Assembly: GCA_041649495.1 (NCBI GenBank)
Contig: JBAZMZ010000002.1
Location: 18,793 to 82,792, forward strand
Origin: Minisyncoccota bacterium
Lineage (GTDB): Bacteria; Patescibacteriota; Minisyncoccia; Phycocordibacterales; XYD1-FULL-46-19
DNA length: 64,000 nucleotides
Direction: 5' to 3'
Below, in pieces: positions 7,823 to 29,283 of the stretch; the stretch's first letter is position 1; each line of letters opens with the position of its first letter. Both the position numbers and the translations under genes were made by a program. Below the pieces are notes generated by a model, which did not search any database, was not told the origin of the DNA, and saw nothing but the letters and a program-made list of their open reading frames with translations.

Positions 7823-9008
7823 TTTCTACCCCACGCCAGACACGATTCAATTCTTCACACGCAATCAAATCGCTTCCACTACCTGCAAACCCAGAGAAGA
7901 TAATATGTCCGGGTGCAGAACATCTTTTGAATGGTTTTTCATTTAAGGTGACTGGTTTTTGAGTGGGATGTAGATAGTTTTGGGTGTTGTCCCTTTTTAC
8001 TAACCAGAGGTCTATCATGTCTTGTAATTCGTCCAAGACTTGGTTGCCAGTGGTTACTTCTTGATTAAGAATTTCATTAGCATTTCTAAAGTTGGGGTTC
8101 AAATAGGGCTTATTTACTGTGCCGTATGAGCACGACTCGTACAATCTGTTCCAAGCAATTTTAGGTGTGCAATTCTGATTCGACTTAATCCAAAGACAAA
8201 CTCTTCTTTTTTTGATCCCATACTTGTCGTACATAGATTGTATTAATCCAATACTGTTAGGATCAGACCAGTAGAAGAAATGTGAATTCGGCTTTGCGAA
8301 TTTTTTAGATGTTTCTATGCTTTTATCAATAAATTCCTTGTACTCGTCTTCGCTCTTGTTATCTTTGTATTCTCCACCATACTTTCCTCCATATTCCCAG
8401 GAAATATTAAATGGCGGATCACAGAAAACAATGTCCGCTAGGTCATCTTTCATCAGTTCCTTTACCTGATTCTCATCAGTAGAATCTCCAACCAAAAGCC
8501 GATGCTTGCCAAGTTCATAAATTTCGCCAAGCTTTACCCTTGCAACAGGGGTTTCCTTCAGGGCTTTTCCTAAGTCAAAGTCATCCTCGATTGTATCAAC
8601 ATCATCGAACAAATTCTGAAGTTCTTCGTCACCGAAGCCGACATCAAGGAGAACGCTCATTTCGAATTCCTTGAGTAATTCTTCATTCCATGAACCCGTA
8701 TTTTTGTTGAGACGGAGGTTGAGTTCCTTTTCTTCTTCGAGTGTCAGCTCTCGGGAAGGCACCATACACTCAACATCCTCAATACCAAGTTCGGCGTACA
8801 CCTTGACCCGTTGTTCGCCCCCGATGATAGTGTTAGCTCGCGAACCGATGTTGAGGACGATGGGGACGACCGTCCCGAATTCTTTAACAGACTTTTCTAA
8901 GTCTCTTTTTTCGTTCTCGCTTAACTTACGCGGATTGTATCCGTTTTTGATCAGATCATTTAACTTGCGAGTAGAGGATGACCATGTGATCTTTTGTTGT
9001 CTAGACAT
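7737..9008 (-). CDS. ParB-like nuclease domain fused to DNA methyltransferase
   Basis: N-terminal ParB/Srx-like region (NPRKLSENEKRDLEKS..) plus DPPFNISWEY and FAGSGSDLIAC MTase motifs. Homologous to the 20741-22021 gene. Confidence 0.85.
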   Translation of the reverse strand: MSRQQKITWSSSTRKLNDLIKNGYNPRKLSENEKRDLEKSVKEFGTVVPIVLNIGSRANTIIGGEQRVKVYAELGIEDVECMVPSRELTLEEEKELNLRLNKNTGSWNEELLKEFEMSVLLDVGFGDEELQNLFDDVDTIEDDFDLGKALKETPVARVKLGEIYELGKHRLLVGDSTDENQVKELMKDDLADIVFCDPPFNISWEYGGKYGGEYKDNKSEDEYKEFIDKSIETSKKFAKPNSHFFYWSDPNSIGLIQSMYDKYGIKKRRVCLWIKSNQNCTPKIAWNRLYESCSYGTVNKPYLNPNFRNANEILNQEVTTGNQVLDELQDMIDLWLVKRDNTQNYLHPTQKPVTLNEKPFKRCSAPGHIIFSGFAGSGSDLIACEELNRVWRGVENDPIFATIVIDRWEKFTNLKAKKIYGDN

Positions 9009-9130
9009 AATAATTTGAGAAGAGGGTTTTATTAGACTCTTCTACCCTTATTCGTCATTGAATGACAAAATGACAATTTTCTTCTGACTCTCAGAAGCTG
9101 GAATCCAAAATATCCTTAATACAAAAGACC

Positions 9131-9172
9131 TTTCGCTGGAAACAGCGGAAGGTCTTTATTTCGTCATCTCAG
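9131..9172. terminator. bidirectional intrinsic terminator hairpin
   Basis: agacctttcgctg-gaaa-cagcggaaggtct stem-loop flanked by A/T runs, downstream of the minus-strand gene ending at 9182. Confidence 0.5.
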
Positions 9173-9181
9173 TTGAGATGA

Positions 9182-9907
9182 CTATTTGTCTCCTCTGAGC
9201 GTAAATCTCGCTCGATACCCATTCTTCTTGGTGTAGTGAGGGATCGGATTTTCTTTCATGCCAAAGAATTCCTTGAGCCGTTCGTTCAGATCGTACTTAA
9301 CGTTCCTGCTGAATCGCCTGTTCCACTTCTCGTTGGTCAACGCACCGCCGTTATCGGCCATTTCCCTGAGCAACTCCCACTTGCGGTCGGGACGGTTCGT
9401 CTTCGTGTTGATGAAGCCCATGTCTTTGAAGTCGAATTTCTTTGACTTCATTTTTGGGTACGATACTTTGACGAAATGTCCATCGATAAACTGGATGCCG
9501 AGTGATTCCCATGTCGCGTTTTGTGGAAGAAGGTACGAAGCAATTACGTATTCGCTTGTGTGCTTTGCCGAGGCGACGGCAATATCTTCAGGGTTTACAA
9601 TCCGTACCTCCTGAACCGGTCGTGTTAATGTAGGCATGAAATAGCTATCCTCCCCACCAAGAGTTTCAGGATATTTTGGCATTGTTATCTGTGATATTGA
9701 TGGGATAGACATTCTTGCCACAGCTTCCATTTGAGGTCTTACGGATTCAATAACTGAGCTTATGTTCTTGAGGGGTTCCCTCATATGTTCAAAAACTTTT
9801 TGGTACTCCTCCACCGCATTATTCAATGGCGAAATAAGCCCTTCTGCAAAAGTGGGGTTGTATCCGTTTTCTACTGCTTGCTTATATATCGATTCGCCAA
9901 CTGTCAT
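9182..9907 (-). CDS. hypothetical protein (241 aa)
   Basis: ORF with a terminator downstream; no recognisable motif. Confidence 0.5.
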   Translation of the reverse strand: MTVGESIYKQAVENGYNPTFAEGLISPLNNAVEEYQKVFEHMREPLKNISSVIESVRPQMEAVARMSIPSISQITMPKYPETLGGEDSYFMPTLTRPVQEVRIVNPEDIAVASAKHTSEYVIASYLLPQNATWESLGIQFIDGHFVKVSYPKMKSKKFDFKDMGFINTKTNRPDRKWELLREMADNGGALTNEKWNRRFSRNVKYDLNERLKEFFGMKENPIPHYTKKNGYRARFTLRGDK

Positions 9908-10498
9908 GTTTTCATTATATCAGAAATTGGCATTTGTTGGTATTTGAGACCATGACCCGAATGCCTAGTTTTGCCTAGTCAAAACGTGCTAGAATACCCT
10001 TATGTGGTCTAACCTTACTAGCACTTAACCCGAGTGTCCCGCCAATTAGAGCTAGCTCGAGATGCCTAGTTTGGGATAGTTTTTGTAATTGTTATTTTTG
10101 AAATTAGTGATAGTATGAGACCACTAGCTCTTAAGAGGTACCAGGACTTTGTTCCTGAAACGATCTTCTATCTTGCATTGGTCGTTCGATCTAGATGAGT
10201 TAGTCAAATTGTAGCTGGTTAATTGCAAGAGCTGTCCGTTAAGGACGCCCTTACAGTGGCCAAGTCGGTGTTTCGACCATAGGTTGAGCACCACCAAGAA
10301 TAGGAACTGAATCATAATTAATTTCATATTAGTATGGTTGATTGTGATTATCATTATTATTCTACCGACGTTGTTAGTTGACCCTAGCTTAGAAATAAGC
10401 AGGACGGCGAATGCAAGTTAGCTTTATAGTTATAATGACCTCTTCCTAGTATCGAACCATGTCAACGGTTTGCAGGAAGAGGTCTTTGCGTTTTTTGT

Positions 10499-11587
10499 AT
10501 GCTATATCAAGAATGGAAAAATCAAATCGGTCTCGAGAAAAAGGTTAGAAACTATCAACACATTGATGGCCGTCTTGATTTAAATAATGAGTTAAACTTT
10601 CTTAGGGTGGTTGACGTCCTTAAAAATATTAAGGGTCATCAGTTTTTACCTTTTATAAAAAAAGATAAAACGGAGATAAGATTTCGTAGAAGTAAAAACA
10701 ATCCAAAGGGAAGAGCCCAAAGAACCAAGAAAGTAAGGCCGATAATGTATGTCTCGCACATAGATGCCCACATTTACAGTTATTACAACTTTGCTCTCAT
10801 GGATAGATATGAACAATATTTAAACGAGATTGGATTGAGCGAAAATGTTATTGCTTATCGGAAAATAGAGATTGCTGGAACCCAAAAGGGTAAGAGTAAT
10901 ATTAATTTTGCCGGAGAGGTTTTTGATTACATAAAAACAAAAGATGAATGCGTGGTTATTACCCATGACATTGAACATTTCTTTGATGAAATAAATCATA
11001 AATTATTGAAAGATAATATCTGCAAAATACAGGGGATTGAAAAATTAGACGAGTCTTTTTACAAAGTATTTAGGTCCCTAACTGCTTACAAATATATTAC
11101 CCATGAAGATTTTTTGAATAAAAAGATCAAGAGAAAGTTGTCTCATGGTAAATATGCAATTTATCAAACTCTAAAAGGCATTGTAGAGGAAAATAGAACA
11201 AATATGGGAATTCCTCAGGGTAGTCCTATTAGTGGCCTACTTGCCAATATTTATTTAGTCAACTTTGATTCTGACATAAAAAAGCTTTTTCCTGATGTAT
11301 TTTATCGTCGATATAGTGACGATCTTGTTTTTGTCTGCAACAAGCTCCAAAAAGATGACCTACTAAAATTCGTAGATAAAAAAATCAAAGAATCCTTACT
11401 GAAGATTAATTCCAAAAAGTCCTTCGTATCTTATTTAAAGAGGGGCGAAAAAGGTATGGTTTGTGAAAAGGTAACAAATGGTTTAGGAGAAAAGCTTGGC
11501 CGAGATTATGTAGATTATCTAGGCTTTGAATTTAGTGGCAATAATATTTTTCTGAGAAAAAACACGATTCAAAAATTAAAGCATTGA
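10499..11587 (+). CDS. reverse transcriptase, stand-alone and unclassified (not the DGR RT); possibly truncated by an in-frame TGA
   Basis: RT motifs GIPQGSPISGLLANIYL and YRRYSDDLVFVC (YxDD), then ..YLGFEF. The ORF ends about 12 aa after motif 7 with no thumb domain and no maturase or endonuclease domains. Confidence 0.85.
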   Translation: MLYQEWKNQIGLEKKVRNYQHIDGRLDLNNELNFLRVVDVLKNIKGHQFLPFIKKDKTEIRFRRSKNNPKGRAQRTKKVRPIMYVSHIDAHIYSYYNFALMDRYEQYLNEIGLSENVIAYRKIEIAGTQKGKSNINFAGEVFDYIKTKDECVVITHDIEHFFDEINHKLLKDNICKIQGIEKLDESFYKVFRSLTAYKYITHEDFLNKKIKRKLSHGKYAIYQTLKGIVEENRTNMGIPQGSPISGLLANIYLVNFDSDIKKLFPDVFYRRYSDDLVFVCNKLQKDDLLKFVDKKIKESLLKINSKKSFVSYLKRGEKGMVCEKVTNGLGEKLGRDYVDYLGFEFSGNNIFLRKNTIQKLKH

Positions 11588-11590
11588 CAA

Positions 11591-11797
11591 ATGGAAAAGA
11601 CTAAAAAACAGTTGTCTAACACCCAACACCAGAAAAGAAGAAAGCTTAAAAAAATCAGAAGAAGGAATAAGGGTAAAACAAACTATTTTGAGAGAACACT
11701 TAAAATAATAAATAATCTCGGGATAAAGAAACAAATATTAAAAGTTACAAAGAAGAGGAATAGTATTAAAAGAGGGATTTTACCACCTCATCCTTAA
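11591..11797 (+). other. basic 68-aa ORF in the same frame as the RT, one codon past its TGA stop; possible displaced thumb/C-terminal tail
   Basis: Frame identity (10499 and 11591 are congruent mod 3). Very basic sequence (KRRKLKKIRRRNKGK..). The RT lacks a thumb-like segment. Confidence 0.35.
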
Positions 11798-13113
11798 ATG
11801 GCAGTTATAATTTTTTGTTTCAAGATAATTTTACTCTTTAGGCATGTCAGCAATTCTCTCTTTTCAATATTTGTCCCATCTCTCAAAATAAACTTGGCAT
11901 AATTTTTGATATCAATTTCGCCGACTTCAATTTTGTCTTTTAATCCAAGGATGACTCTTTGGAATTTCTTGAAACGCTCAACTTCGGTTTTGATTTTTTC
12001 CTTGATACTGATTTCGTTTAGATCTATTTTGTCGAGGAGCAGTTCGAATTGTTTAATCAAATCTTTTTCTTCAATATATCCGCATTTACAGTGGGCATCT
12101 TTGGCCTTAGTACAGCCATAATATACGTAACGATGAACATTGCCATTTTGCTGTTTCTTGAATTTCTCGTCAGCACAAATACCTGATCCGCATAAACCGC
12201 AAGTCATTAATTTGGTAAAAGCGAATTCCTGATTTTCGACTCTTAAAACATTGCTCTTAAGTTGAGCATGGGTTTGATCGAATAATTCTCGAGTGATAAT
12301 TGGCTCGTGTTTGCCTTGATACCAATTTCCACTATTTTTCGGATATTCAAAGGCCCCGTAATAAAAGGGGTTATAGAGAATACGAAAGATATTGCCTAGA
12401 CTTAAATGCTTTTTGCCTGCCGACGTTCTGAAATTTAATTCAAACCGTAACCACATATAAAGTTTCTTTCCACTCCATTTATCATAAGCCACTTTCTCAA
12501 ACACTTGTTTAATAACTGGTGCCCGTTCTGGATCAATAATTGCTTGGCACTTTCGATCCGATCTTTTTTCATTGAGATAGCCCGTCGGTGGAACTCCCGG
12601 TCTTAAACCCATTTCGCACCTAGTCCTTAGGCCACGTTTTACATTAACGCTCTTGTTGTCATTTTCGAGTTTGGCTTGAGAACATAAGATCATTAACAGG
12701 AATTTTTCATTTGGTGAATTTATAAATGTCTGGCCATAAGTTCTGATTTGCAGAAGCAATTTTTGATCCATTAAATCAACAACTGAACCAAGATCGCCAG
12801 CGTTTCTTGAAAGTCTGTCAGGTGCCCAAGTCAAAATTCCATTGAACCGACCCTGCCTAATATCCTCGAGTAATTCCTTAAAAATTGGCCGTTGTCCCGA
12901 GTCCTTAGCTGAATGAGCCTCACGTCTAATATCGACAATTTCTAAATTATCCCTTTCGGCCAATTGGAGCATCTCTTTGACTTGCGAATCGATCGACAAG
13001 ATTTGGCGCTCTTCTGATTCGGTCGACTTGCGTGCATATAGGACATACTTAATCGGCGTTGGTGGGGCAACGATTGATCTATCCATTATTTGACTATCCA
13101 GCTCTATTTTCAT
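11794..13113 (-). CDS. large serine recombinase
   Basis: N-terminal resolvase catalytic domain (YARKSTESEERQ..SIDSQ), recombinase domain, and Cys-rich zinc-ribbon region (CGLCGS..YYGC..CKC). Confidence 0.9.
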   Translation of the reverse strand: MKIELDSQIMDRSIVAPPTPIKYVLYARKSTESEERQILSIDSQVKEMLQLAERDNLEIVDIRREAHSAKDSGQRPIFKELLEDIRQGRFNGILTWAPDRLSRNAGDLGSVVDLMDQKLLLQIRTYGQTFINSPNEKFLLMILCSQAKLENDNKSVNVKRGLRTRCEMGLRPGVPPTGYLNEKRSDRKCQAIIDPERAPVIKQVFEKVAYDKWSGKKLYMWLRFELNFRTSAGKKHLSLGNIFRILYNPFYYGAFEYPKNSGNWYQGKHEPIITRELFDQTHAQLKSNVLRVENQEFAFTKLMTCGLCGSGICADEKFKKQQNGNVHRYVYYGCTKAKDAHCKCGYIEEKDLIKQFELLLDKIDLNEISIKEKIKTEVERFKKFQRVILGLKDKIEVGEIDIKNYAKFILRDGTNIEKRELLTCLKSKIILKQKIITAI

Positions 13114-13302
13114 CGTCGTCCATTAATGACAGACCAGAAAACCTTGTAAAGTCTATGCAGAATTGCCCGTTTATTACATAATCGTGGGCTAGCTTTACAA
13201 AAAATACTGTCTGCGATAGGGTTGGACGGATACAATTTTTGTTGTATTATTATCTTTGACAATACCTAAACCAAACTTTGCGTTTGGCATGGTAAATATA
13301 GG

Positions 13303-13468
13303 AAATCCCACGCGAGTAGAAACGGCCACATAAGCCGGCACTTACTCGCGTGGGTCCTCACCCGAAAGGGAGAGGGATAGTTCCGAAAGGAGCTATCGTC
13401 GGTCTTGTGTGGCCATTTGTGTCCCACAAAAATTATTAGCAATTATTATTAAATCCCACGCGAGGTAT
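13303..13468 (+). promoter_or_regulatory. structured 5' leader: pseudoknotted hairpin, two GAAA-tetraloop hairpins, and a triplicated segment allowing alternative pairing over the start region
   Basis: 12-bp stem cccacgcgagta (13307-13318) / tactcgcgtggg (13343-13354) with 24-nt loop. Loop segment ggccaca (13324-13330) is complementary to tgtggcc (13408-13414). GAAA hairpins at 13356-13375 and 13375-13396. aaatcccacgcgag occurs at 13303-13316 and again at 13451-13464, 4 nt before the ATG at 13469. Confidence 0.45.
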
Positions 13469-14119: not shown

Positions 14120-15034
14120 TTGTTTATTATGAAAACTTTTCTTTTTAAAAAAATCCTGTTCGGCATAGGTGTGGTTTTTGTCCTCTTAATATTAATCGGT
14201 ATCATTTTCCCGACCTCTGATTCCGAAATAAGCAAAAGGGAAATTAAAAATGTTGAAGTTGACACTCGAGTGGCAATTTCAAATCTAAAAGAGCAAGAAG
14301 CCGTTGTCCCTAAAGTTCAGAACCTAAGTCCTAAAGTAGAGGCCACAAAAGAAACGGTTGCTCAAGTTAAGATTCCTCCGGCTGTCCCTACCTATACTTA
14401 TTACTCCGTAACGAGCGTTGTTGATGGTGATACTTTGAAAGTAAATATCAATGGAAATACCGAGACACTACGTCTAATTGGTATGGACACCCCAGAAACG
14501 GTTGATCCCCGAAAACCTGTTCAATGTTTTGGGAAAGAAGCTTCAAATAAAGCCAAAGAATTATTAACTGGCAAAAAAGTTCGAATTGAAAAAGATCCAA
14601 CTCAAGGCGAACGAGATAAATATAATCGCTTGCTTGCCTATATCTACCGTGAAGATGGATTATTCTATAACAAATATATGATTGAAATTGGTTATGCCCA
14701 TGAGTACACCTATGGCACTCCCTACAAGTATCAAGCAGAATTTAAAGTGGCTCAGAGGTCTGCTCAGGCTTCATTTGCTGGGTTATGGTCTCCGAATACC
14801 TGCAATGGGGATACAACTTCATCCGCGGGCACAACGACTGTCGCTCCCGTCACTCAGACAACGCAAACGGTGGGCAAGTTTTACACTTCTTCTTATTCAA
14901 CTTCAAAATACTATTACCCAGCAGAATGTGACGATTGGAAAAGTTTAAGTGTAACATACCTTAAATCTTTTGATTCACTCGACGCTCTTCTTTTAGCCTA
15001 TCCTTCAAAAGCTAAAAGTCCTCAGTGTGATTAG
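14120..15034 (+). CDS. membrane-anchored thermonuclease (staphylococcal nuclease-like)
   Basis: N-terminal TM helix then SNase-fold motifs VVDGDTLKV...RLIGMDTPE...YNRLLAYIY and a Thr/Ser-rich C-terminus. Confidence 0.85.
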   Translation: MFIMKTFLFKKILFGIGVVFVLLILIGIIFPTSDSEISKREIKNVEVDTRVAISNLKEQEAVVPKVQNLSPKVEATKETVAQVKIPPAVPTYTYYSVTSVVDGDTLKVNINGNTETLRLIGMDTPETVDPRKPVQCFGKEASNKAKELLTGKKVRIEKDPTQGERDKYNRLLAYIYREDGLFYNKYMIEIGYAHEYTYGTPYKYQAEFKVAQRSAQASFAGLWSPNTCNGDTTSSAGTTTVAPVTQTTQTVGKFYTSSYSTSKYYYPAECDDWKSLSVTYLKSFDSLDALLLAYPSKAKSPQCD

Positions 15035-15062: not shown

Positions 15063-16115
15063 TTATTGTTCACAAAACCAAAATTCATTTCTAATCTTTT
15101 CACTTTGCTTATGAGTATTGGCATGGGATAAAACACCAAGATAAGAGTTAATTGTACCCTTGTAGCAATTGGGAGAGATCAACCCATTTTCATAATTTTT
15201 CTTGGACAGATCTATCTTTCGCCACATTCGCCGCTCGCTTCTTTTTCGCAAACGGCGGTGATAGGGTAAAAGCACGTAGCCAAGGAAATCGGTACCTTGG
15301 AATATTTTACCAATTCCCACCTTTTCCGGATGCAAAGACAGTCCCAGCTCCGTTTTTAAAAATTTAACCATTGGTTTAATTAAGCCGAGCAAATAATCAA
15401 TATTGTCTGATACAACAATAAAATCATCAGTGTATCGAACATAATTTTTAACCCTTAGCTCATGCTTCACGAATTGGTCAAACTCATTCATGTATACGTT
15501 GGCAAAGAGCTGGGAAGTGAGGTTGCCAATCGGGACACCGCGACGATTAAACAAATCTGAATATTCGCTCAAAAAACTTTCAATAATTTCTTCCAAAAGC
15601 CATATGGCGTTTTGGTCCGAGATCCTCCTTTTAATAATCGAAAGAAGAAACGAGTGATTAATGGTATCGAAGAATTTTTTAACGTCGCATTTTAAGGCAA
15701 AGCCGGGACGCGAATAATTATGGCTGACTTGCTGTTGCATTTGCTCCAAAACCGCCACGCCCTTGTGCGTGCCTTTGCCAAAACGGCAAGAAAAAGAACG
15801 CGGAATAAAAGTTGGTCCAAACACCCAATTCAACACTCGAAAAATAGCATGGTGTAAAACGCGATCACGGACCGTCGCCTTATGGATATGTCGCCGTTTG
15901 GGATCGTAAATATAGAAACTGCTATATGGACCATGCTTGTAAGTTCGGCTGGTTAAATCTCGGTGCAATTGAAAGATATTTTGTTCCAGATTCTTTTCGA
16001 AAGCCAATACGTCCGGCTTTTTCTGTTTGCCCCGCTTAAATTCTTCCCACGCCTGAAATAGGTTCTCCAAATTAACAATCTGATCAAATAAATTATTGTA
16101 AACCCTCATAACCAA
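15063..16115 (-). CDS. diversity-generating retroelement reverse transcriptase
   Basis: Close motif-by-motif resemblance to the Bordetella phage bRT: NLFQAWEEFKRGK, HGPYSSF, GKGTHKGV, IGNLTSQLFANVY, RYTDDFIVV, FLGYVL, SHANTH. Confidence 0.9.
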   Translation of the reverse strand: MVMRVYNNLFDQIVNLENLFQAWEEFKRGKQKKPDVLAFEKNLEQNIFQLHRDLTSRTYKHGPYSSFYIYDPKRRHIHKATVRDRVLHHAIFRVLNWVFGPTFIPRSFSCRFGKGTHKGVAVLEQMQQQVSHNYSRPGFALKCDVKKFFDTINHSFLLSIIKRRISDQNAIWLLEEIIESFLSEYSDLFNRRGVPIGNLTSQLFANVYMNEFDQFVKHELRVKNYVRYTDDFIVVSDNIDYLLGLIKPMVKFLKTELGLSLHPEKVGIGKIFQGTDFLGYVLLPYHRRLRKRSERRMWRKIDLSKKNYENGLISPNCYKGTINSYLGVLSHANTHKQSEKIRNEFWFCEQ

Positions 16116-18884: not shown

Positions 18885-20345
18885 TCAAAAGAAAAAAATC
18901 CTTTGGCCACCCGGTCGTTCTTCCATAACACTTAGCACCATGATTGAAAAGGCATCGGCTAGATCGTCGTGCTTTTCCACTCCGAAATTAATAATTTGAT
19001 TAAGGAGTTCTTCACAATTATCCCTTGGAAAGAGGATTTTGCCAGACTTTATCCAGTGAGCTGTCATAACGAGACGACTTCGTTTGTCGCCACAAGGACG
19101 AGATGTCATGATGTTGTAGATGTTTTCGGCTTCAAGTTGTTGTGGCAACGCTCGTTGGTAAGCGACGTCTTCGAAGACAAACTCCGGGATCGTATCATCA
19201 GCGTAATATGACTTGTAAATTGATTTACAAAGTTCGACCGTCTCTGGGAAGGTAATTTTTTTATTAACAATTTTGGGCAAGATATAAATTCGTAGTCCAT
19301 TATCATCTTCGTATGCACAGCCGATCACCATTGCCGTATAATCAGCTGAGTCTTTTTGTGAGATTGCTAAATCCACCCCAATTCGGATACCAAGATAACA
19401 GGAGTATCCGTAGCGTTTTTTCTTCTTTGAGGGTAGTTCGTCGTAATAGTGAATCCAGTCTCGGTGGATGGCCTGCTCTTCAGATGGGACGATGCGAAGC
19501 AGGTATTCTCGTTGCCAGGCATACTCGTTGGCCGATCGCCTTTTCTCTGTCTCAATATCCTCCATTGTCGGATATTTCCCCGGCCAAAGAATTTGGCCGT
19601 TTTGGACTAATGGATATTGTTTAAATACGCCATCTAGTTTTCCGGTCTCAATATTTTCTTTAATCCGCATTAAGAGTGAATCTTCGTGCAGAAGATTACC
19701 AACGATGACAATTCTGGTATCTCGATCACCAGCCGGGACCACCTCAGCTGTTAGCCACTGATATGTTTTATTGCGACTTTCGCGAGTTTTAGTTGAAGAG
19801 AGATCCTCTACGTCGTCACCGATTATTAGATCAGGACGATGTTGGTTGTGTCTTAAACCTCTGATACTTTGCTCGCTTGAGGCAACGGTAATACGAGCAT
19901 TTGAATTGGAGAAAACCAGTGACGAAGTTCCCCATTCATTGGATTCTTCGTTGAATGGTCCGAGGTCGTTTTTCAACACCGTGTTTTCTTCTAACTCTCG
20001 GCGAAGATTCATCATGTGCTGTTTAGCCTGAGCTTGAGTTTGACAGAGAATGAGAACAAATTTTTTCTGTTGTCTACCGAGAATAGCCCAGAGCGGATAG
20101 GAAGTGGTGATAATAGTTGATTTACCACAACCACGAAAAGCAACGACAAAGAAGTTCTTCACCGATTCGTCTTCTGTTAAGCCGATAATTTCTCGCTGGA
20201 AAGTGGCCGTCTGGTATTTAATGTAATGGGCGAAATAAAAATGAAAGAAATACCAGTGACTTTCCTTGGTAATGGAAATTCTAACTTTCTGGTCGCGGAT
20301 CATCGTTTCCGCTAGATCCACTGGGATCACATTTTTCGTTGTCAT
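18885..20345 (-). CDS. phage terminase large subunit
   Basis: Walker A FRGCGKST near the N-terminus, ATPase then RNaseH-like nuclease half with acidic residues (DDLADAF). Size about 486 aa. Confidence 0.85.
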   Translation of the reverse strand: MTTKNVIPVDLAETMIRDQKVRISITKESHWYFFHFYFAHYIKYQTATFQREIIGLTEDESVKNFFVVAFRGCGKSTIITTSYPLWAILGRQQKKFVLILCQTQAQAKQHMMNLRRELEENTVLKNDLGPFNEESNEWGTSSLVFSNSNARITVASSEQSIRGLRHNQHRPDLIIGDDVEDLSSTKTRESRNKTYQWLTAEVVPAGDRDTRIVIVGNLLHEDSLLMRIKENIETGKLDGVFKQYPLVQNGQILWPGKYPTMEDIETEKRRSANEYAWQREYLLRIVPSEEQAIHRDWIHYYDELPSKKKKRYGYSCYLGIRIGVDLAISQKDSADYTAMVIGCAYEDDNGLRIYILPKIVNKKITFPETVELCKSIYKSYYADDTIPEFVFEDVAYQRALPQQLEAENIYNIMTSRPCGDKRSRLVMTAHWIKSGKILFPRDNCEELLNQIINFGVEKHDDLADAFSIMVLSVMEERPGGQRIFFF

Positions 20346-20754
20346 GTTGGTTGTCGTTATCGCTATTAATTTCTGTTGGCTCAGGTATTTGAGCTAGTTT
20401 TAGGGCCTCACGAACAATAGCTTCCTGTTCGGGGGTTAATTCACCGTTGTTTTGGATTTTGGCTGTTACCTCCATCTTATCTTTGAATCTGGTATTACGA
20501 TGTCGTAACCAAAAACTAATTGCGGGGAAATTTCTTTCTTTAATCAGACTCAACAACTGGCTTTCACTCATATCATTAACTAACGCCTCACCCTCGGCTA
20601 AGGCCTCGTTCATTTCTTTCTTAAATTCCTTATCTTTATCGCACCAGCGATACACACTGGTGCGAGAGACATTCATCTTTTCACATGCGACTTGCACAAT
20701 GGGTACTTTTTTCAATTCCTCCAAAAAGGAATTTCTTACTTTAGCTTTTTTCAT
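20281..20754 (-). CDS. HTH protein, probable terminase small subunit
   Basis: N-terminal HTH (VACEKMNVSRTSVYRWC). Overlaps the start of the terminase large subunit gene, an arrangement typical of small/large terminase pairs. Confidence 0.5.
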   Translation of the reverse strand: MKKAKVRNSFLEELKKVPIVQVACEKMNVSRTSVYRWCDKDKEFKKEMNEALAEGEALVNDMSESQLLSLIKERNFPAISFWLRHRNTRFKDKMEVTAKIQNNGELTPEQEAIVREALKLAQIPEPTEINSDNDNQHDNEKCDPSGSSGNDDPRPES

Positions 20755-22021
20755 GGTTAATCTTTGCCTTACGGCCGGTTAATTTCTCATAATGTCGAAT
20801 TGCCAAATCACAAAAAACGGGTTCAAGCTCGACAGCGAAGACTCTTCGCTTGAGTTGCTCGCCTGCAATTAAAGTGCTGGACGACCCGGAGAAGCTATCT
20901 AAAATAATGTCGCCGGGCTTGGTGCAACGGCGAATCGCTTTTTCGTGCAATTTTGGTGGCTTGGAAGTGGCATGTTCATAATCTTTGCCGGATAGTCGTT
21001 TAACCGCCCAGACATCAATATTGTCTAAAGCTTCCTCGACCAGAGCGTTGCCTGTACCGATTTCTTTATTGAGTACCTCATTCAGATTTTTAATCTCCGG
21101 AGCGATATATGGTTTACCCCTAACGCCATAAGTACATGGCTCATAGCATTTATTGAAAGCTACACCCGGAGTCGGGTTCTGACCGTTCTTGAGCCAGAGA
21201 CAAATTCGTTTATTTTCAATTCCTAATTCGCGGTATAAATCTTGAACCAGCCCGACGTATATCTGGTCCGACCAATAGAAAACGTGGGTGTCAGGCTTGG
21301 CAACCATTAGGGCGTTAACCAGACTTTGGCGCAGAAAGTCTCGATATTCGACAAAAGTTCGTTTGTCGTTTACATTACCGCCATAATTTTTCTTGCCACC
21401 GATACCTTGGGAATAATCTAGGTTGATGTTGTAGGGAGGATCTGAGTAGATCATCGAAGCTCTATTGTTGCCAAATAGTCGCCTTAGGATGGCCGGGTCG
21501 CCAGAACTACCACAGATTAAGCGGTGTGGCCCAAGCTCGATTAGGTCGCCTAGCTTTGTCTTAGGTTCTTTAATTTTTTCTAATTCTTTTTCTTCGTCAA
21601 AATCATCATCCTTGGTTTCTAGGTTTTGATCCCAGATTTTGGCTAATTCGTCTTGATTAAATCCGATATCAGTGAGAAGATCTAGGTTAAATGATTTCAA
21701 TTTCTCAAAATCCCAGTCGCCAGTGACGGCATTGGAAGTGATGAGGTATTGATCATATTCCTGTTGTGTTAATTTACGGTTAGGAATTCTGACCTCGATT
21801 AATTCTTCACCTCGACCCAGCACCTGCAGAGCACGAATCCGTTGGTGCCCAGCAACGATTTTGCCATCAATATCCACGGCCGGTAGTTCAACAAGGTTGA
21901 ACTTTCTCAGACTCTTCTTCAAATCGCTCATTTGCTTGTCTGAAATCAAGCGCGGATTTTTAGCATAAGGCAGGAGGTCGTTGACCTTGCGTTTTTGAGT
22001 AGACCAAATTAATTTTTTCAT
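20741..22021 (-). CDS. ParB-like nuclease domain fused to DNA methyltransferase (second copy)
   Basis: Same architecture and motif set as the 7737-9008 gene (ParB-like N-terminus, DPPYNINLDY, FSGSSSTLIAGE). Confidence 0.85.
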   Translation of the reverse strand: MKKLIWSTQKRKVNDLLPYAKNPRLISDKQMSDLKKSLRKFNLVELPAVDIDGKIVAGHQRIRALQVLGRGEELIEVRIPNRKLTQQEYDQYLITSNAVTGDWDFEKLKSFNLDLLTDIGFNQDELAKIWDQNLETKDDDFDEEKELEKIKEPKTKLGDLIELGPHRLICGSSGDPAILRRLFGNNRASMIYSDPPYNINLDYSQGIGGKKNYGGNVNDKRTFVEYRDFLRQSLVNALMVAKPDTHVFYWSDQIYVGLVQDLYRELGIENKRICLWLKNGQNPTPGVAFNKCYEPCTYGVRGKPYIAPEIKNLNEVLNKEIGTGNALVEEALDNIDVWAVKRLSGKDYEHATSKPPKLHEKAIRRCTKPGDIILDSFSGSSSTLIAGEQLKRRVFAVELEPVFCDLAIRHYEKLTGRKAKINHEKS

Positions 22022-22949: not shown

Positions 22950-23081
22950 GTGAATATTATACTCCCATTTAATTTTTAAAATAAGTCTAAATATGGTATA
23001 ATAAGGGAGATTTTCGCAAAATAAAGCAAAATTTAGCGGAAATATTCCCAAAAAGTTAAAAAATAACGATTTAAAACAAAA

Positions 23082-23327
23082 ATGTCTAATTATCACGTTA
23101 CAAATCCTAAAGGATCGGATATTTGGAAAGTCCTAAAAGAAGGAGCTGGTCGGTCTTCGGCAACAGCTCAAACCCAAAAACAAGCTGAGACTATCGCCAA
23201 ATTATTATCAGCTAATTCGGGTGGTGGCGAAGTCGCTATCCATCGGTCAAACGGTGGACCAATTCGAGACAAAGATACCGTTTGGCCAGGGCACGATCCA
23301 AATCCGCCAAAAGATAATAAACACTAA
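23082..23327 (+). CDS. DUF2188-like small protein; first gene of a tightly packed five-gene operon
   Basis: 81 aa with W..G.RS....TQKQA...AK.L....GGGE..IH..NG.I pattern ending in PPKD. A TATAAT-like box about 80 nt upstream. 2-3 nt gaps to the following genes. Confidence 0.5.
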   Translation: MSNYHVTNPKGSDIWKVLKEGAGRSSATAQTQKQAETIAKLLSANSGGGEVAIHRSNGGPIRDKDTVWPGHDPNPPKDNKH

Positions 23328-23329
23328 AT

Positions 23330-23497
23330 ATGAAATGTGAAAAATGTGATAAAGATATGAGACAGATTGGGCCTTTTGCTCAAACCAAGGCCGAGGGAGA
23401 GCCGGCTGGTAAATGGGATGGGGTTCTGGATTTTCAATGTGTAAATCCTGATTGCGAAAATTACAATAAGATTATAAGAAAAGAGACCCTTGGCTAG
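23330..23497 (+). CDS. zinc-ribbon protein (55 aa), not in the ORF track
   Basis: Direct translation MKCEKCDKDM...FQCVNPDCENYNKII gives two CxxC pairs. Starts 3 nt after the previous stop and ends 2 nt before the next start. Confidence 0.45.
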   Translation: MKCEKCDKDMRQIGPFAQTKAEGEPAGKWDGVLDFQCVNPDCENYNKIIRKETLG

Positions 23498-23499
23498 AT

Positions 23500-23892
23500 A
23501 TGGAGGCAAAATTAAAACATCTAGGATTTATACAGGATACGATTAATCGTATGGCAAAAAATTCCTTCCTGCTAAAGGGCTGGGCGCTGACTGTTATTGG
23601 GGGCTTACTGGCATTGAGCCTGAAAGAAATGATTTGCCAATATCTTTTTATCTCTTTGGCGGCTCTGATTTTCTTTTGGCTGTTGGACAGTTACTATTTG
23701 TGCCAAGAAAAGCTATTTATTAGACTTTATGATAAGACAAGAGACCTACCAGGGGATCAGATAAATTTTTCTATGAATACGGATTCTTTTAAAACGAAAA
23801 CGGGCTGGCTAAAATGTTGTTTTTCAAGAACCATCTCTTTATTTTATGGCGGACTTTTTTTAATGCACTTAATTATAATTTTAATTTCATAA
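23500..23892 (+). CDS. small membrane protein (2-3 TM)
   Basis: Hydrophobic segments. Translationally coupled to its neighbours. Confidence 0.5.
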   Translation: MEAKLKHLGFIQDTINRMAKNSFLLKGWALTVIGGLLALSLKEMICQYLFISLAALIFFWLLDSYYLCQEKLFIRLYDKTRDLPGDQINFSMNTDSFKTKTGWLKCCFSRTISLFYGGLFLMHLIIILIS

Positions 23893-23895
23893 ATT

Positions 23896-24492
23896 ATGGC
23901 AAGAAAAGTATTTTATAGTTTCCATTTTGAGCGAGATTCCCAAAGGGCGGCACAGGTTAGGAATAGCCATTCCCTTGCCGACGAAGACGAATATGGCGTA
24001 GTCGATTCTGTCGAGTGGGAGAAAATTGAACGCCAAGGAAAACAGGCTGTTGAAAATTGGATAAAAGATCAATTGAAATATACCTCGGTTACAGTTGTTC
24101 TTATCGGAGCAGAAACGGCTGACCGAGAGTGGGTTCAGTATGAAATCCGGCAAAGTTGGGATCGTGGTAACGGGTTAGTTGGCGTTAGTATACATAATGT
24201 GAAAAATTTAGATGGAAAGACAGATACCGCCGGTCCAAATCCATTTGAGCGTGTATTGTTAGCGGATGGTTCGCCTGTTTCATCAATTTGTAAAATTTAT
24301 GACTGGGTTACAGAAGACGGTATTGGCAATTTGGGTAAATGGGTTGAAGAGGCCTTCCAGACAAGGGTTAGTTATAAAGGAGAAAAAAATCTTAAGGCTA
24401 ACCATTTGGAAAAAACTAGCACCGATAACTCCTCAAGGTTATCTAGTGGTCCTGTGACTTTGAACAATCCTCCTCAGCCATGGACACCATAG
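23896..24492 (+). CDS. TIR-like domain protein (DUF1863 / ThsB-like)
   Basis: N-terminal RKVFYSFHFERD, later SVTVVLIGAETADREWVQYEI and GLVGVSIHNVKN match the bacterial TIR-like (MTH538/DUF1863) pattern. Confidence 0.5.
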   Translation: MARKVFYSFHFERDSQRAAQVRNSHSLADEDEYGVVDSVEWEKIERQGKQAVENWIKDQLKYTSVTVVLIGAETADREWVQYEIRQSWDRGNGLVGVSIHNVKNLDGKTDTAGPNPFERVLLADGSPVSSICKIYDWVTEDGIGNLGKWVEEAFQTRVSYKGEKNLKANHLEKTSTDNSSRLSSGPVTLNNPPQPWTP

Positions 24493-25211
24493 AAAAATAT
24501 GATTTTTCAGAAGATGAAATATCTGCTGTTAGAAATAGATTTCCAAAATTAACACTAAAAGAGCGCGGGGTTTGGGAAGGAGAAATTGAGATCAATGCTG
24601 TTTATAATGAGTATCTCATTCAGGACAGCTTTGAGATACAAATTATTGCCAATAATTTGTATCCTGATGAGATGCCGGTCTTGATGGAAATTGGTGGTCG
24701 GACAGAGGATATTGCTGACAAGTATCAGCTCAAAGACAAGCGATCCTTGCATTACAATTCAGTAACAAAAGTTGCTTGTCTTTGTGTTAAACCAAGAGAA
24801 AAACAATATTTCCCAACAGGCTCAAATCTCGTGATTTTTATTAATGACCTCGTAACCCCATACTTGTATGGGTTAAGCTATTTCGATAAAAATGGCCGGT
24901 GGCCGTGGGGAGAGTATGGTCATGGAATCATGGGGTTGTTAGAGTGTTATGCTGAGAATTCTATAGTTAAAGACTCAGCTAGTATAGAAAATTTGATAAA
25001 GACAATACGAAGAGAACCAAACTGGAAAGAATATAATATTCAACTGAGAAAGCCTAACAGTAAGAAAAATTGCCTATGTGGTTTAGGGGACAGATCATTT
25101 GAAAAATGCCATAGTCTAGCTTGGGAGGGGCTTAAAAAATTACAGCAAGATGTTCTGTCTTTGGGACTTAATCCGAATAAGCTATTTCAAATCGTCGGGG
25201 GTAAAAAGTGA
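24480..25211 (+). CDS. hypothetical protein with E2/UBC-like HxN...C signature and C-terminal SEC-C-like metal-binding motif
   Basis: HYNSVTKVACLCV resembles the E2 HPN...C catalytic signature. NCLCGLGDRSFEKCHS resembles the SEC-C motif CxCGSG..K.CH. Overlaps the TIR-like gene by 13 nt. Confidence 0.4.
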   Translation: MDTIEKYDFSEDEISAVRNRFPKLTLKERGVWEGEIEINAVYNEYLIQDSFEIQIIANNLYPDEMPVLMEIGGRTEDIADKYQLKDKRSLHYNSVTKVACLCVKPREKQYFPTGSNLVIFINDLVTPYLYGLSYFDKNGRWPWGEYGHGIMGLLECYAENSIVKDSASIENLIKTIRREPNWKEYNIQLRKPNSKKNCLCGLGDRSFEKCHSLAWEGLKKLQQDVLSLGLNPNKLFQIVGGKK

Positions 25212-25413: not shown

Positions 25414-25752
25414 ATGCGGATTTGGGATATCTAACCAAAGAATTTATGTCGAAAACATTTACTGGCCGAGCATCGGGAGCTTCATGGTCTCTGGAATATT
25501 TTGACGAAACATCAGGGTCGAGGTGGGTATTCAAAACATCCCGAAACTTTGCGTTGGGTCGGCAAACAAAAGGCGCTTTATGGTCGGCACGAAGCTTTGG
25601 TGAAAGAATTTTCTCGGCGGGGGTATTCTCATCAGACACCCCTTGATAAAAGATTGGCACTTGGAATTGGTCGGCAGAATTGTTTTATCAATACTGTTGG
25701 AGAGCAACGGATAATTCTTAAACAAAAACCTTGCGATTGTCTCCTGTCTTAA
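25414..25752 (+). pseudogene. pyrimidine dimer DNA glycosylase (T4 endonuclease V / DenV family), interrupted by an in-frame TAA
   Basis: ATG at 25414 gives MRIWDI, then TAA at 25432-25434. The same frame continues PKNLCRKHLLAEHRELHGLWNIL...YSKHPETLRW...RRGYSH, matching the family. ORF-track entries 25422 and 25501 are fragments of this gene. Confidence 0.6.
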
Positions 25753-26800: not shown

Positions 26801-27298
26801 ATGGCTAAAATTGATAATAAAAAATATAAAAATGTCATTTTGTATTTTGCCGACCGAATTCAAAATGGGACTCTAGGAAAATTGAAGATGATGAAGTTGC
26901 TTTATTATCTCGACTTTGATTTTTTCGAAAAACATGGCCGTTCGATTACTGGTGATGAGTATCTGCGCTTTGAAAATGGACCGGTTCCGCGAATGGCCGA
27001 GAAATTACTCAAAGAAATGAATGGTCAAGAGATTAAAATTACCGCGAAAAAGGTTGGGGTTGGTCTTAATGACCAGCAACATATTCAAGCCTTGCGAGCT
27101 TACGACCTAAACGTTTTTTCCCGGGAAGAATTGGTGATGTTGGAGGAGGTGGCCGATAAATGGGAAAAGTTTTCTGGTTCGGAGATGAAGAGTGCTACTC
27201 ACGGCGAAGCGCCCTGGATTGCGACCAAACCAAACGAAGTGATTGATTATAATTTGGTCTATTATCGCAACAAATACGGCGAAATGTATGTTAATTGA
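26801..27298 (+). CDS. Panacea-domain (DUF4065) protein, candidate PanA-type antitoxin
   Basis: KLLYYLDFDFF..G..ITGDEY..FENGPVP pattern of DUF4065. Directly upstream of, and overlapping, a RelE/ParE-like toxin gene. Confidence 0.6.
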   Translation: MAKIDNKKYKNVILYFADRIQNGTLGKLKMMKLLYYLDFDFFEKHGRSITGDEYLRFENGPVPRMAEKLLKEMNGQEIKITAKKVGVGLNDQQHIQALRAYDLNVFSREELVMLEEVADKWEKFSGSEMKSATHGEAPWIATKPNEVIDYNLVYYRNKYGEMYVN

Positions 27299-27623
27299 TC
27301 GCCACGAGGATCTCGCTAAAGATTTTAAGAAACTGAAACGGTGGCCGGCGTCCATTGAATCTTTGGAAGCTTGGGAGCGCTATTTTTGTTTTAAAGGGCT
27401 TCTCGAAACGCCCGGGATTGTGTCGTACCCCGGTTTTGGTGATACCAAAATTTACAAAGCCCGAGTTGTTCCCCTTAAAGAAAAATGCGGAAAATCTCGT
27501 GGTTACCGGTTGATTTTCAAACTGGTGGCCAATAACGCGATTTTGTTGCTACTTTTTTCTCGCCATGGCGTGTATAATGACGAAAAAGAGTTGGCGGATA
27601 TTATTAAAAAGAGGATTAAATAA
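27288..27623 (+). CDS. RelE/ParE-family toxin
   Basis: Start at MLIDRHEDL (27288) overlaps the upstream stop by 11 nt. KIYKARV...GKSRGYRLIFKLV...LLLLFSRHG is the RelE/ParE signature. The upstream N-terminal extension in the ORF track is spurious. Confidence 0.6.
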   Translation: MLIDRHEDLAKDFKKLKRWPASIESLEAWERYFCFKGLLETPGIVSYPGFGDTKIYKARVVPLKEKCGKSRGYRLIFKLVANNAILLLLFSRHGVYNDEKELADIIKKRIK

Positions 27624-27627
27624 AGGC

Positions 27628-29283
27628 ATGACCCAGCAAGAAGCTTTGGCGATTTTGAAAATGGGGCACAACGCTTTTTTAACCGGCGCGGCCGGGAGCG
27701 GGAAGACTTTTGTGCTTAATGAATATGTGGATTGGCTGAAAAATCAAGGTGTGGAGGTGGGTGTGACGGCTTCCACCGGCATTGCCGCGACGCATATTGG
27801 GGGGATGACTATCCACGCGTGGTCGGGACTTGGCGTGCGCGACAAACTCTCGGCTTACGATCTCGAAGATTTAGAAAGCAAATCTTATTTGTGGAAACGA
27901 CTTGACCGGGCCAAGGTCTTGGTGATTGATGAGGTTTCGATGCTTCATCATTATCGCTTGGATTTAATCGAACAAGTTTTGCGCTCGTTTAAACGGAACA
28001 ACGAACCGTTCGGTGGCGTTCAGGTGATTTTGTGTGGCGACTTTTTTCAATTGCCACCCGTGGCGCGGATGGGCGAGAGACCCTCGCGTTTTGCTTACGA
28101 AGCGAAGTCTTGGCAAAATCTCGGTTTGAAAATTTGCTATCTCGAAGAACAACATCGGCAAAATGATGATAATTATCTCGCGATTCTCAACGCGATTCGT
28201 GATAACGAGATGAACGTAGATTTGGGCGAAAGTTTGCGGTCTCGTTTGAATCAAAAAACCAATTCGATCGAACCGACTAAATTATATTCGCACAATGTGG
28301 ATGTGGACGAAGAGAACGAACGCGAGCTGGCCAAATTGCCCGGCGAGGCAAGGGAGTATTATATGAACGACAAGGGTCGAGAAAAGGTGGTGACGACTCT
28401 GAAAAAAGGTTGTCTCGCGCCCGAAGTTTTGCGATTAAAAAAAGGGGCAAGGGTGATGTTTGTGAAAAATAATTACGAAGCCGGTTTTGCCAATGGCACC
28501 TTGGGTATTGTTTCGAGTTGTGATGCTTCAGGGATAACGGTGCGGACCGCCAAGGGCAAATTGGTTAATGTGACGTCGGCCAGTTGGCGCATTGAGGAGG
28601 AGGGAAAAATTAAGGCCGAAATTAATCAATATCCTCTGCGTTTAGCTTGGGCGATTACCGTGCACAAGAGTCAGGGCCTGTCGCTCGACGCGGCCGAAGT
28701 GGATTTGTCGCAATCGTTCGAACCGGGGATGGGCTATGTCGCCTTGTCGCGGGTGCGCTCGCTTGATGGCTTGTCGCTTAAGGGTTTGAACGCGCTGGCG
28801 CTCCAAGTGGATCCGGGCGTTTTGCAAAAAGATGGCGAGTGGCGTCGCGAATCGCAAAAACATTCCGCCGAGATGTCGGCGCTGGATAAGGCGGATTACG
28901 AAGCTAAACAAAAAAGATTTTTGAACAAAATTGGCGCGCTCTCGGCGAAAGAAGCCAAACTAAAAAATAAAAAAATTAGCACGATTGAGAAAACGCGGAT
29001 GCTCCTCGACGAAGGCAAAACTCTTCACGAAATGGCCAAGGAACGAAATTTGAAAACGGGCACGATTCTCGATCATTTGGAAAAGATCAAAGAGCAGGAC
29101 TCGACCGTAACCTTGCAATACTTGAGTGAGGGACTGATTGTTTCTCGGTCTAAAAAAATTCGTGAGGCCTTAAAAAAGGGGGGGATGACTGGTGGCCAAT
29201 ATCTGCTCGGTCCGGCCAAAAACCTCCTTGGTCCAAATTTTTCCTACGAAGAAATCCGGTTGGTCAGATTGTTGATGTCCTAA
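27628..29283 (+). CDS. RecD/Pif1-like ATP-dependent DNA helicase with C-terminal HTH
   Basis: Walker A LTGAAGSGKTF, DEVSM Walker B, helicase C-terminal motifs (VHKSQG). ATG at 27628. Confidence 0.85.
   Translation: MTQQEALAILKMGHNAFLTGAAGSGKTFVLNEYVDWLKNQGVEVGVTASTGIAATHIGGMTIHAWSGLGVRDKLSAYDLEDLESKSYLWKRLDRAKVLVIDEVSMLHHYRLDLIEQVLRSFKRNNEPFGGVQVILCGDFFQLPPVARMGERPSRFAYEAKSWQNLGLKICYLEEQHRQNDDNYLAILNAIRDNEMNVDLGESLRSRLNQKTNSIEPTKLYSHNVDVDEENERELAKLPGEAREYYMNDKGREKVVTTLKKGCLAPEVLRLKKGARVMFVKNNYEAGFANGTLGIVSSCDASGITVRTAKGKLVNVTSASWRIEEEGKIKAEINQYPLRLAWAITVHKSQGLSLDAAEVDLSQSFEPGMGYVALSRVRSLDGLSLKGLNALALQVDPGVLQKDGEWRRESQKHSAEMSALDKADYEAKQKRFLNKIGALSAKEAKLKNKKISTIEKTRMLLDEGKTLHEMAKERNLKTGTILDHLEKIKEQDSTVTLQYLSEGLIVSRSKKIREALKKGGMTGGQYLLGPAKNLLGPNFSYEEIRLVRLLMS

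Follow-up and report, generated by a model that had tools for sequence, protein, structure and literature searches.

To which kind of defence system does an operon belong in which a TIR protein is followed directly by an E2-like protein, and what might the second protein do to the first? Both questions are raised by five genes, here called p1 to p5, on a 64,000-nucleotide stretch of a Minisyncoccota bacterium (GCA_041649495.1, contig JBAZMZ010000002.1, positions 18,793 to 82,792 of the forward strand), which we refer to as the window and whose own numbering is used throughout. The genes are + strand open reading frames (ORFs) of 81, 55, 130, 198 and 243 aa, closely packed and located exactly where a prediction made from the letters of the window (the original prediction) had placed them, with spacers of 2 nt (p1-p2), 2 nt (p2-p3) and 3 nt (p3-p4) and an overlap of 13 nt between p4 and p5. 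The same five-gene block is found, identical, in six contigs from several samples, which represent a single lineage and hence are not independent. Judged by the sequences of its effector and its TIR, the locus is a type V Thoeris system, and it carries a regulator of the kind found in E2-containing cyclic oligonucleotide-based antiphage signalling systems (E2-CBASS). We give a probability of about 0.7 to the reading that this is an abortive-infection system in which ThsB, the Thoeris TIR, would be covalently processed, or primed and controlled, by a CBASS-type E2.

The original prediction had proposed a defence-type operon with a TIR-like and an E2-like protein and without a SIR2, SLOG or Macro partner for the TIR. 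This picture stands, with matches to Pfam ThsB_TIR and to PADLOC E2 models and no such partner. Profile searches place p4 inside the ThsB TIR family and p5 in an E2 family, whereas a TIR-like protein outside its clan and a housekeeping p5 would have spoken against the proposal. The further claim that no described system corresponds to the operon has to be divided. Its parts are known (PDC-M50, type V Thoeris, E2-CBASS), while the combination of ThsF and ThsB with an E2 alone, and a shared non-glycine C-terminal tail, appear undescribed in the literature searched.

A ThsB-type TIR beside a ThsF-family effector

The fourth gene, p4 (23896..24492, +), encodes a 198-aa ThsB-type TIR and predicted signal synthase (Pfam ThsB_TIR, 6.4e-24), with PADLOC matches to ThsB1 (5e-61) and PDC-M50B (3e-59) and PDB sequence matches to 8wcf_A (6e-29) and B. 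cereus ThsB (6lhy/9b7d, 2e-24). A TIR core (aa 1-157) is followed by a low-complexity linker (aa 158-184) and a C-terminal tail (aa 185-198). The predicted catalytic glutamate E83 (codon at 24142..24144, +) aligns with E85 of B. cereus ThsB, which we take to be the catalytic residue of that protein, and is conserved in 25 of 25 aligned sequences (24 full-length E2-linked TIRs and the B. cereus ThsB reference).

Type V Thoeris was recently defined as a ThsB together with an effector of three transmembrane (TM) segments, labelled DUF2270 and given the new name ThsF (Yirmiya et al., bioRxiv 10.64898/2025.12.03.692087, December 2025 preprint). Two such systems, of B. thuringiensis DAR 81934 and of Bacillus sp. 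1NLA3E, were validated and consist of two genes each (bioRxiv 10.64898/2025.12.03.692087), and the pair is equivalent to the PADLOC candidate PDC-M50. In the window the gene directly 5' of p4 is p3 (23500..23892, +), coding for a 130-aa 3-TM protein of the ThsF family (PADLOC PDC-M50A, 4e-44) with TM segments at about aa 23-41, 45-65 and 110-130 and an AlphaFold2 (AF2) model that is entirely helical (predicted local distance difference test, pLDDT, 91.7). PDC-M50A and PDC-M50B are therefore both present and adjacent, and a ThsB-type TIR with its catalytic glutamate shares an operon with a neighbouring effector gene, as in Thoeris systems generally. The original prediction rightly listed p3 as a small membrane protein but took it for an anonymous extra, whereas it is 44% identical (E 3e-33) to a 132-aa protein of Bacillus sp. 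1NLA3E (P0297). P0297 is encoded directly after the published type V ThsB in the 1NLA3E locus (L179 in our set), where the gene at 1912-2499 encodes the exact TIR-domain sequence of Table S1 of the preprint (bioRxiv 10.64898/2025.12.03.692087), and this system was validated against phage (Table S2, bioRxiv 10.64898/2025.12.03.692087). Because p3 is homologous to a protein beside a published ThsB, it is by sequence a ThsF-family protein, and a predicted membrane-disrupting effector. On the other hand, p4 belongs to the B. cereus ThsB/DUF1863 subtype, which sets it apart from the TIRs in both validated type V systems.

The family of p3 is large, with 5502 representatives at the 50%-identity level in many phyla and also on plasmids. 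A ThsF-family gene adjoins a TIR recognised by hidden Markov models (HMMs) in about 49 of 80 genome loci, and a Pfam scan of seven apparently orphan ThsF loci showed a neighbouring TIR from a different subfamily in 7/7. Pairs with a type V-like TIR are common on plasmids of Klebsiella (42 records) and Escherichia (36 records), and such enterobacterial pairs, e.g. on the Klebsiella pneumoniae plasmid pCuAs (L174) and about 80 further plasmids, are annotated only as a hypothetical protein and a TIR. In one member of the family (P0189), an '8xMP' octameric membrane protein is fused to a ThsF-like module.

The same homologies bear on an opposite division of labour, in which the TIR itself would be an NAD+-depleting effector and the membrane protein a sensor, an anchor or a holin-like prophage gene. 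Many bacterial TIRs are NADase effectors (bioRxiv 10.64898/2025.12.03.692087), the operon adjoins prophage packaging genes, and p3 also matches a PHROG family. However, p4 is closest to the signal-producing B. cereus ThsB, p3 is homologous to a validated Thoeris effector, and in another relative (P0175) a SLOG ligand-sensor (LD_cluster2) is fused to a ThsF-like module, a layout that fits a signal-activated membrane effector. Given also that the partner of the E2 in sister cassettes is always a signal synthase, we consider an effector role of the TIR very unlikely.

A stand-alone E2 of the CBASS type

The last gene, p5 (24480..25211, +), encodes an E2-only protein of 243 aa that belongs to the type II-short CBASS family and has a UBC-fold core (~aa 1-160) and a C-terminal helical extension that holds a zinc site. 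It has no Pfam match, and a single-sequence search of the PDB returned nothing, but seven PADLOC E2 or E1-E2 models match it (down to 3e-36) and a confident AF2 model (pLDDT 88) has the UBC fold, which assigns p5 to the UBC/E2 superfamily. Neither p5 nor the neighbouring genes contain an E1 (ThiF) or JAB domain. The predicted active-site stretch H91-Y-N...C100 (24750..24779, +) has the UBC-type HxN followed by a cysteine about 9-10 residues on. Across 64 E2s, 27 TIR-linked and 37 CD-NTase-linked, eight residues are invariant (64/64): H91, C100, H148, G149, C198, C200, C210 and H211. They include a second histidine, H148, with the adjoining G149 (24921..24926, +) and the SEC-C-like zinc-binding motif CxC-x9-CH (C198, C200, C210, H211; 25071..25112, +). 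In searches with a profile of the p5 family, the only PDB matches were C-terminal zinc-binding peptides of SecA, weakly (E 0.1-0.15), and Pfam SEC-C (PF02810) did not match p5 at E <= 1.

A guide to what such a protein may do is the CdnG-E2 pair of S. marcescens, an example of E2-CBASS (PDB 8hsb; bioRxiv 10.1101/2022.05.25.493364; mLife PMC12948482). There the E2, acting alone, uses C101 and H87 to cut the final residue from the cyclase, whose tail is ...Y405-G406-E407. G406 becomes bound to C101 as a thioester, which is then converted to isopeptide links, giving cyclase chains; defence needs the E2, its Cys and His, and the cyclase Gly (bioRxiv 10.1101/2022.05.25.493364; PMC12948482). The arrangement of H91 and C100 in p5 parallels the catalytic H87/C101 of the S. 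marcescens E2 (bioRxiv 10.1101/2022.05.25.493364). H148 is a possible counterpart of H152 in that E2, an inferred correspondence rather than one read from a residue-by-residue alignment. H152 is required for isopeptide-to-thioester conversion (bioRxiv 10.1101/2022.05.25.493364). By this analogy the locus probably works like E2-CBASS at the E2 step.

A C-terminal tail shared by two kinds of signal synthase

A link between p4 and p5 lies in the last residues of the TIR, GPVTLNNPPQPW-T-P (aa 185-198; 24448..24489, +), a motif shared with other E2-linked synthases and the predicted E2 recognition and acyl-donor tail. The pattern GPTxIxNPxxPW-[A/S/G/T]-x (consensus GPT[VI]IxNPxxPW, then two residues of which the first is small) ends 28 distinct TIRs and 42 distinct CD-NTases encoded directly upstream of a p5-type E2. 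In the TIRs it comes after a low-complexity linker of ~25 aa beyond the core, and the residue after the invariant Trp is Ala in 21/28 and otherwise Ser, Thr, Gly or Val, with Thr in p4. The motif is missing from 40/40 ThsF-linked TIRs without an E2, which end right after the core; their median length is 165 aa as against 199 aa with an E2, a difference of ~35 aa. Five E2-linked TIRs miss the strict pattern, three with PW-C plus an extension, one with QW-G-Y and one diverged. Among these variants (L099 and L106 from Acidobacteriaceae, and L104), the tails read ...P[RK][SA]PW-C with an extension of 8-10 residues, or ...TPGQW-G-Y; if the E2 acts as a C-terminal protease, it would trim away the longer extensions.

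The Pro-Trp codons of the tail are overlapped by the start codon of the E2 gene in many loci, which raises the possibility that the motif is a nucleotide artefact of that start (CCATGG). This was rejected: third codon positions of the tail approach saturation (1.6-2.0 bits), whereas the codons for P, I, N, P, P and W hardly vary at their first and second positions, and both the motif and this codon-position pattern also hold in loci whose genes do not overlap. The tail is thus conserved at the peptide level.

The distribution of the tail also bears on whether the E2 is a passenger, or an enzyme acting on phage or host proteins beside an ordinary two-gene type V Thoeris system. ThsF-ThsB pairs work and are widespread without it, as the validated two-gene systems and its absence from about 65 of the 80 genome loci of the ThsF family attest. 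Yet the TIR tail occurs only where an E2 follows, and it is also found on CD-NTases linked to this E2 family. In nearly all loci there is an overlap or no gap between the p4 and p5 genes, and in homologous CBASS the substrate of the E2 is the adjacent signal synthase. An E2 with no business with its TIR therefore seems quite unlikely.

Gene neighbourhoods and exchange of partners

All 24 close homologs of p5 come from metagenomes of the candidate phyla radiation (CPR) type, and their contexts fall into two classes, effector-SMODS(CD-NTase)-E2 and ThsF-ThsB-E2. Homologs also assign the window to a Candidatus Paceibacterota (CPR) genome. PADLOC reads the former as a 1TM effector, a cyclase and an E2, i.e. 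as type II-short E2-CBASS. For a broader view, 80 metagenomic loci were retrieved with an E2 profile and their neighbours classed by seed-built HMMs, and the counts given here add earlier and genome loci. Synteny in other genomes was a check proposed with the original prediction, and it came out in favour of a conserved set, as the order ThsF>ThsB>E2 occurs in 27 loci. ThsB>E2 is found in another 16, on rearranged or short contigs, and CD-NTase>E2 in 50, where the upstream effector is of the 1-TM or the SAVED type or none was called. Outside CPR, ThsF-ThsB-E2 was found in Lentisphaeria, Desulfobulbaceae, Gemmatimonadaceae, Acidobacteriaceae and Rhizomicrobium. The conserved core of the operon is three genes, ThsF, ThsB and E2.

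E2s with TIR partners and E2s with CD-NTase partners mix in a neighbour-joining tree, while the deeper branches and outgroups are all CD-NTase-linked. This suggests an origin of the E2 in CBASS and more than one change of partner, although the number of switches is unreliable in a simple distance tree. The sister CBASS cassette has a 1-TM effector of 177 aa to which p3 is unrelated, so effectors were exchanged along with the synthases.

One set of loci (L006, L007, L056 and L057, at ~3831-4994) has a frameshifted ThsF whose N-terminal part reads into ThsB as a 377-aa ORF. A clean fusion giving a 'long TIR' in L006/L007 was rejected on this ground, and the frameshift is either a decayed effector or an assembly error common to two samples.

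Most E2 cassettes of both kinds have a LexA/S24-peptidase-type gene directly 5' (L001-L003, L004, L008, L009 and many others). By analogy this suggests that the cassettes of these relatives may be under DNA-damage- or repressor-controlled transcription, like CapH/CapP in idea. The cassette in the window has no S24 gene and instead possesses the DUF2188 and zinc-ribbon genes. In L001 the LexA/S24-type gene is fused to a DNA methylase and stands beside an MvaI/BcnI restriction gene.

Accessory genes of the operon

The first gene, p1 (23082..23327, +), codes for an 81-aa DUF2188 protein, as the original prediction had called it (Pfam DUF2188, 1.3e-15), and also matches PHROG 3220 and PDC-S16 (2e-15), a single-gene candidate of PADLOC. 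Where DUF2188 occurs, its gene lies directly 5' of ThsF, and 3' of the S24 gene if one exists. The second, p2 (23330..23497, +), encodes a 55-aa zinc-ribbon-like protein (C3, C6, C37, C42). Its ribbon-like character agrees with the call of a double-CxxC ribbon, although the motif is a CxxC plus Cx4C pair. It has no match in Pfam, PADLOC, NCBIfam or PHROGs, and NCBIfam has none for any of the five proteins.

These two genes raise the possibility that all five form one obligate system, with DUF2188 and the zinc ribbon essential, e.g. as a second effector and a sensor. The genes lie close enough together to be translationally coupled, the block is identical in the six contigs, DUF2188 is found in 8 of the 27 ThsF-ThsB-E2 loci, and besides being a PADLOC candidate it has been listed as a putative Thoeris effector (bioRxiv 10.64898/2025.12.03.692087). 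Against this, 19 of the 27 loci do without DUF2188, which is also present in none of the CBASS-E2 loci, and a p2-based HMM matches the window alone among 92 sequences (91 loci and the window). p2 is found in all six near-identical contigs, but these are one lineage. We regard an obligate five-gene system as unlikely: the five genes do occur together, but as a three-gene core to which p1 is an optional accessory and p2 a lineage-specific add-on.

A model for the operon and observations that oppose it

Under a type V Thoeris system controlled by an E2, infection would be sensed by ThsB (p4), whose TIR site at E83 would, as in its family, turn NAD+ into an ADP-ribose-derived signal. Most likely this would be 3' cyclic ADP-ribose (3'cADPR), given that B. 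cereus ThsB is the nearest match of p4 and that one validated type V system, that of B. thuringiensis, uses 3'cADPR (bioRxiv 10.64898/2025.12.03.692087). The signal would activate ThsF (p3), which, following the ThsF model of the preprint, would oligomerise, damage the membrane and halt the cell before phage release. At the E2 step, p5 would recognise the ThsB tail ...NPPQPW-T-P and, in analogy to S. marcescens, C100 and H91 would remove its final residue, join ThsB to the E2 as a thioester (ThsB~E2) and transfer ThsB onto lysines of the E2 itself, of another ThsB or of other proteins. Such a modification might restrain ThsB, prime it, or both.

A bolder version is more doubtful and is put forward tentatively. 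The E2 and the ...NPxxPW-small-x tail would be a portable, E1-independent regulator that moved repeatedly between CD-NTases and TIRs, and a covalent ThsB~E2 or poly-ThsB, formed via a non-glycine C-terminus, would gate the TIR by induced proximity. We know of no TIR in any kingdom that is gated by a covalent E2 conjugate or by induced proximity of this kind.

Several observations weigh against an E2-controlled type V Thoeris system as outlined here. The first concerns the signal: adding 3'cADPR was not toxic with the 1NLA3E type V system (bioRxiv 10.64898/2025.12.03.692087), which leaves the identity of the signal in doubt even among type V systems. The second concerns the effector. p3 has no match to Pfam DUF2270 (PF10028, gathering threshold 25 bits) at E <= 10, and 13 of 35 of its relatives match only below the threshold (best E 0.0027). 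The ThsF-like protein of L162 reaches 15.3 bits (E 0.016) and one relative (P0323) has a precomputed PF10028 match. By sequence, the p3 family is at best distantly or peripherally related to the Pfam DUF2270 model, and as p3 lacks this match it is tied to ThsF by its direct homology to the protein of 1NLA3E. Orthology of the TIR alone is insufficient for that link: the ThsB of a B. cereus plasmid (L172) shares 53% identity with the validated ThsB of B. thuringiensis, yet it has no adjacent ThsF and lies in a type I island. TIRs that are ~50% identical can have different effector partners. Third, the co-occurrence of tail and E2 (Fisher p = 9e-16) comes from a test that ignores phylogeny and counts related loci as independent. 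Finally, the penultimate tail position is usually Ala, Ser or Thr and not a conserved Gly, and the chemistry at a non-Gly acyl donor may differ from that of the characterised systems.

Relation to known systems

The locus joins two known kinds and is not categorically new. It shares with type V Thoeris the small 3-TM effector beside a ThsB TIR, the gene order and the catalytic Glu, but its ThsB has an extra ~40 aa of linker and tail, the pair has DUF2188 and zinc-ribbon genes on its 5' side and an E2 gene on its 3' side, and the host is a CPR bacterium. Compared with type I Thoeris (B. cereus MSX-D12 ThsB with the SIR2-SLOG protein ThsA), p4 is a clear ThsB homolog (E 2e-24) with the same Glu, whereas there is no ThsA, SIR2 or SLOG gene and the effector is a membrane protein. 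Likewise, a stand-alone E2 with Cys and His and without E1 or JAB is what characterises type II-short CBASS, but the locus is not CBASS because a CD-NTase (SMODS) is lacking. It resembles E2-CBASS in an aromatic-small-x tail ending (W-A/S/T/G-x) and in an E2 with the matching Cys/His/His set. The differences are a TIR in place of the CD-NTase, a longer E2 (243 aa vs about 160 aa, with the extra C-terminal Zn-binding module) and a penultimate tail residue that is mostly Ala, Ser or Thr after an invariant Trp instead of the conserved Gly.

A closely related idea is already in the type V Thoeris preprint, which describes Thoeris operons with Cap2 and Cap3 and a glycine-containing tail, and others with Cap9-11, from genome context only (Fig. 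6F/S10A, bioRxiv 10.64898/2025.12.03.692087). Those operons, too, place a ubiquitin-like ancillary module of CBASS on a Thoeris TIR with a C-terminal conjugation tail. They differ in having an E1-E2 fusion (Cap2), a JAB protease (Cap3) and a conserved-Gly tail, where the window has an E2 only, neither the fusion nor the protease, and a PW-[A/S/T]-x tail. The preprint mentions no E2-only form, and the supplementary tables examined hold no 'Cap2' or 'ubiquitin' entries (bioRxiv 10.64898/2025.12.03.692087). Full-text literature searches combining Thoeris with E2-CBASS found nothing, though an earlier bioinformatic mention of a TIR-E2 pair may exist, and searches for PDC-M50 and 8WCF also returned nothing.

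A post-translational regulator shared by Thoeris and CBASS links two immune families that use nucleotide signals, and its transfer is a natural experiment on what a minimal E2-only machinery recognises, probably a short peptide tail rather than the enzyme body. If the E2 does conjugate the TIR via a Trp-Ala/Ser/Thr-x terminus, bacterial E2 chemistry would reach beyond glycine, and this would point to a new kind of on/off control for TIR enzymes, bearing on how TIR signalling is governed in plants and animals. The locus also extends type V Thoeris and E2-type regulation to CPR/Patescibacteria, whose defence repertoire is poorly known. Together, the tail motif and an E2 HMM give a simple rule usable by defence-annotation tools.

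Genomic setting and side observations

A promoter-like site, TTTAAA-16 nt-TG-TATAAT (22975..23002, +), lies ~80 nt 5' of p1 and is a candidate operon promoter. It has the top score in the region (10/12 positions, with the extended -10 TG), but the number of promoter-like sites there is not above shuffle expectation, which makes it weak evidence. A terminator scan gave no convincing end of the operon, and an Rfam search gave no RNA family within it. Downstream, the operon adjoins a Pyr_excise (denV-type) remnant (25422-25752, +) in two overlapping frames that match about half of the domain, so the decayed denV gene of the original prediction is confirmed; in the sister contigs no gene is called there.

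Upstream on the opposite strand are a 329-aa ORF of unknown function, a ParB-methylase-type DNA methylase and then the genes of the small and large terminase subunits. The methylase of the window (20741-22021) matches N6_N4_Mtase only, while its counterpart in L009 and its paralog at 7737-9008 also match ParB_N. Together with a further methylase (7001-7822), a serine recombinase (11794-13113) and the two terminase genes, these paralogs form the backbone of a mobile element, whose genes span 7001-13113 and 18885-22021 of the window. Because Thoeris-E2 as well as CBASS-E2 cassettes are surrounded by this backbone in further CPR contigs (L004, L008, L009), the cassette site looks like a hotspot for defence cargo. 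Relatives of the p5 E2 were absent from the viral contigs of IMG/VR, which gives no support for carriage by recognised phages.

The cassette shares this mobile element with a DRT2-type defence reverse transcriptase (10499-11587, +; PADLOC Drt2, 1.5e-100; Pfam RVT_1), located ~11.5 kb 5' of the operon. A second reverse transcriptase (15063-16115, -) matches the generic RT model of PADLOC (1e-48) and is UG17-like (6e-37). Near it, the segment 16942-17981 has a GC content of 0.57 vs about 0.40 nearby and carries long ORFs that overlap on the two strands; a non-coding RNA or a template region associated with the RT is a possible explanation.

Further, the LOOT RNA motif (Rfam RF03000) is present in three + strand copies (3260-3385, 13263-13397 and 55293-55415; 69-86 bits, gathering score 46), one of which lies just 5' of a pair formed by a 236-aa ORF and an SNase gene. 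The product of the SNase gene at 14120-15034 (+) is of the secreted-nuclease type (PADLOC C3a212 'SNc+LTD', 4e-47). An SNase gene (1864-2877 in L006) also lies just 5' of the S24-ThsB-E2 cassette in L006 and L007, and its association with the cassette may not be accidental.

Beyond the denV remnant, at 26801-27623 (+), a SocA/Panacea-domain antitoxin-like gene (1.7e-19) overlaps a 126-aa ORF without matches, and the two are a possible toxin-antitoxin pair. A PIF1-family helicase gene follows at 27565-29283.

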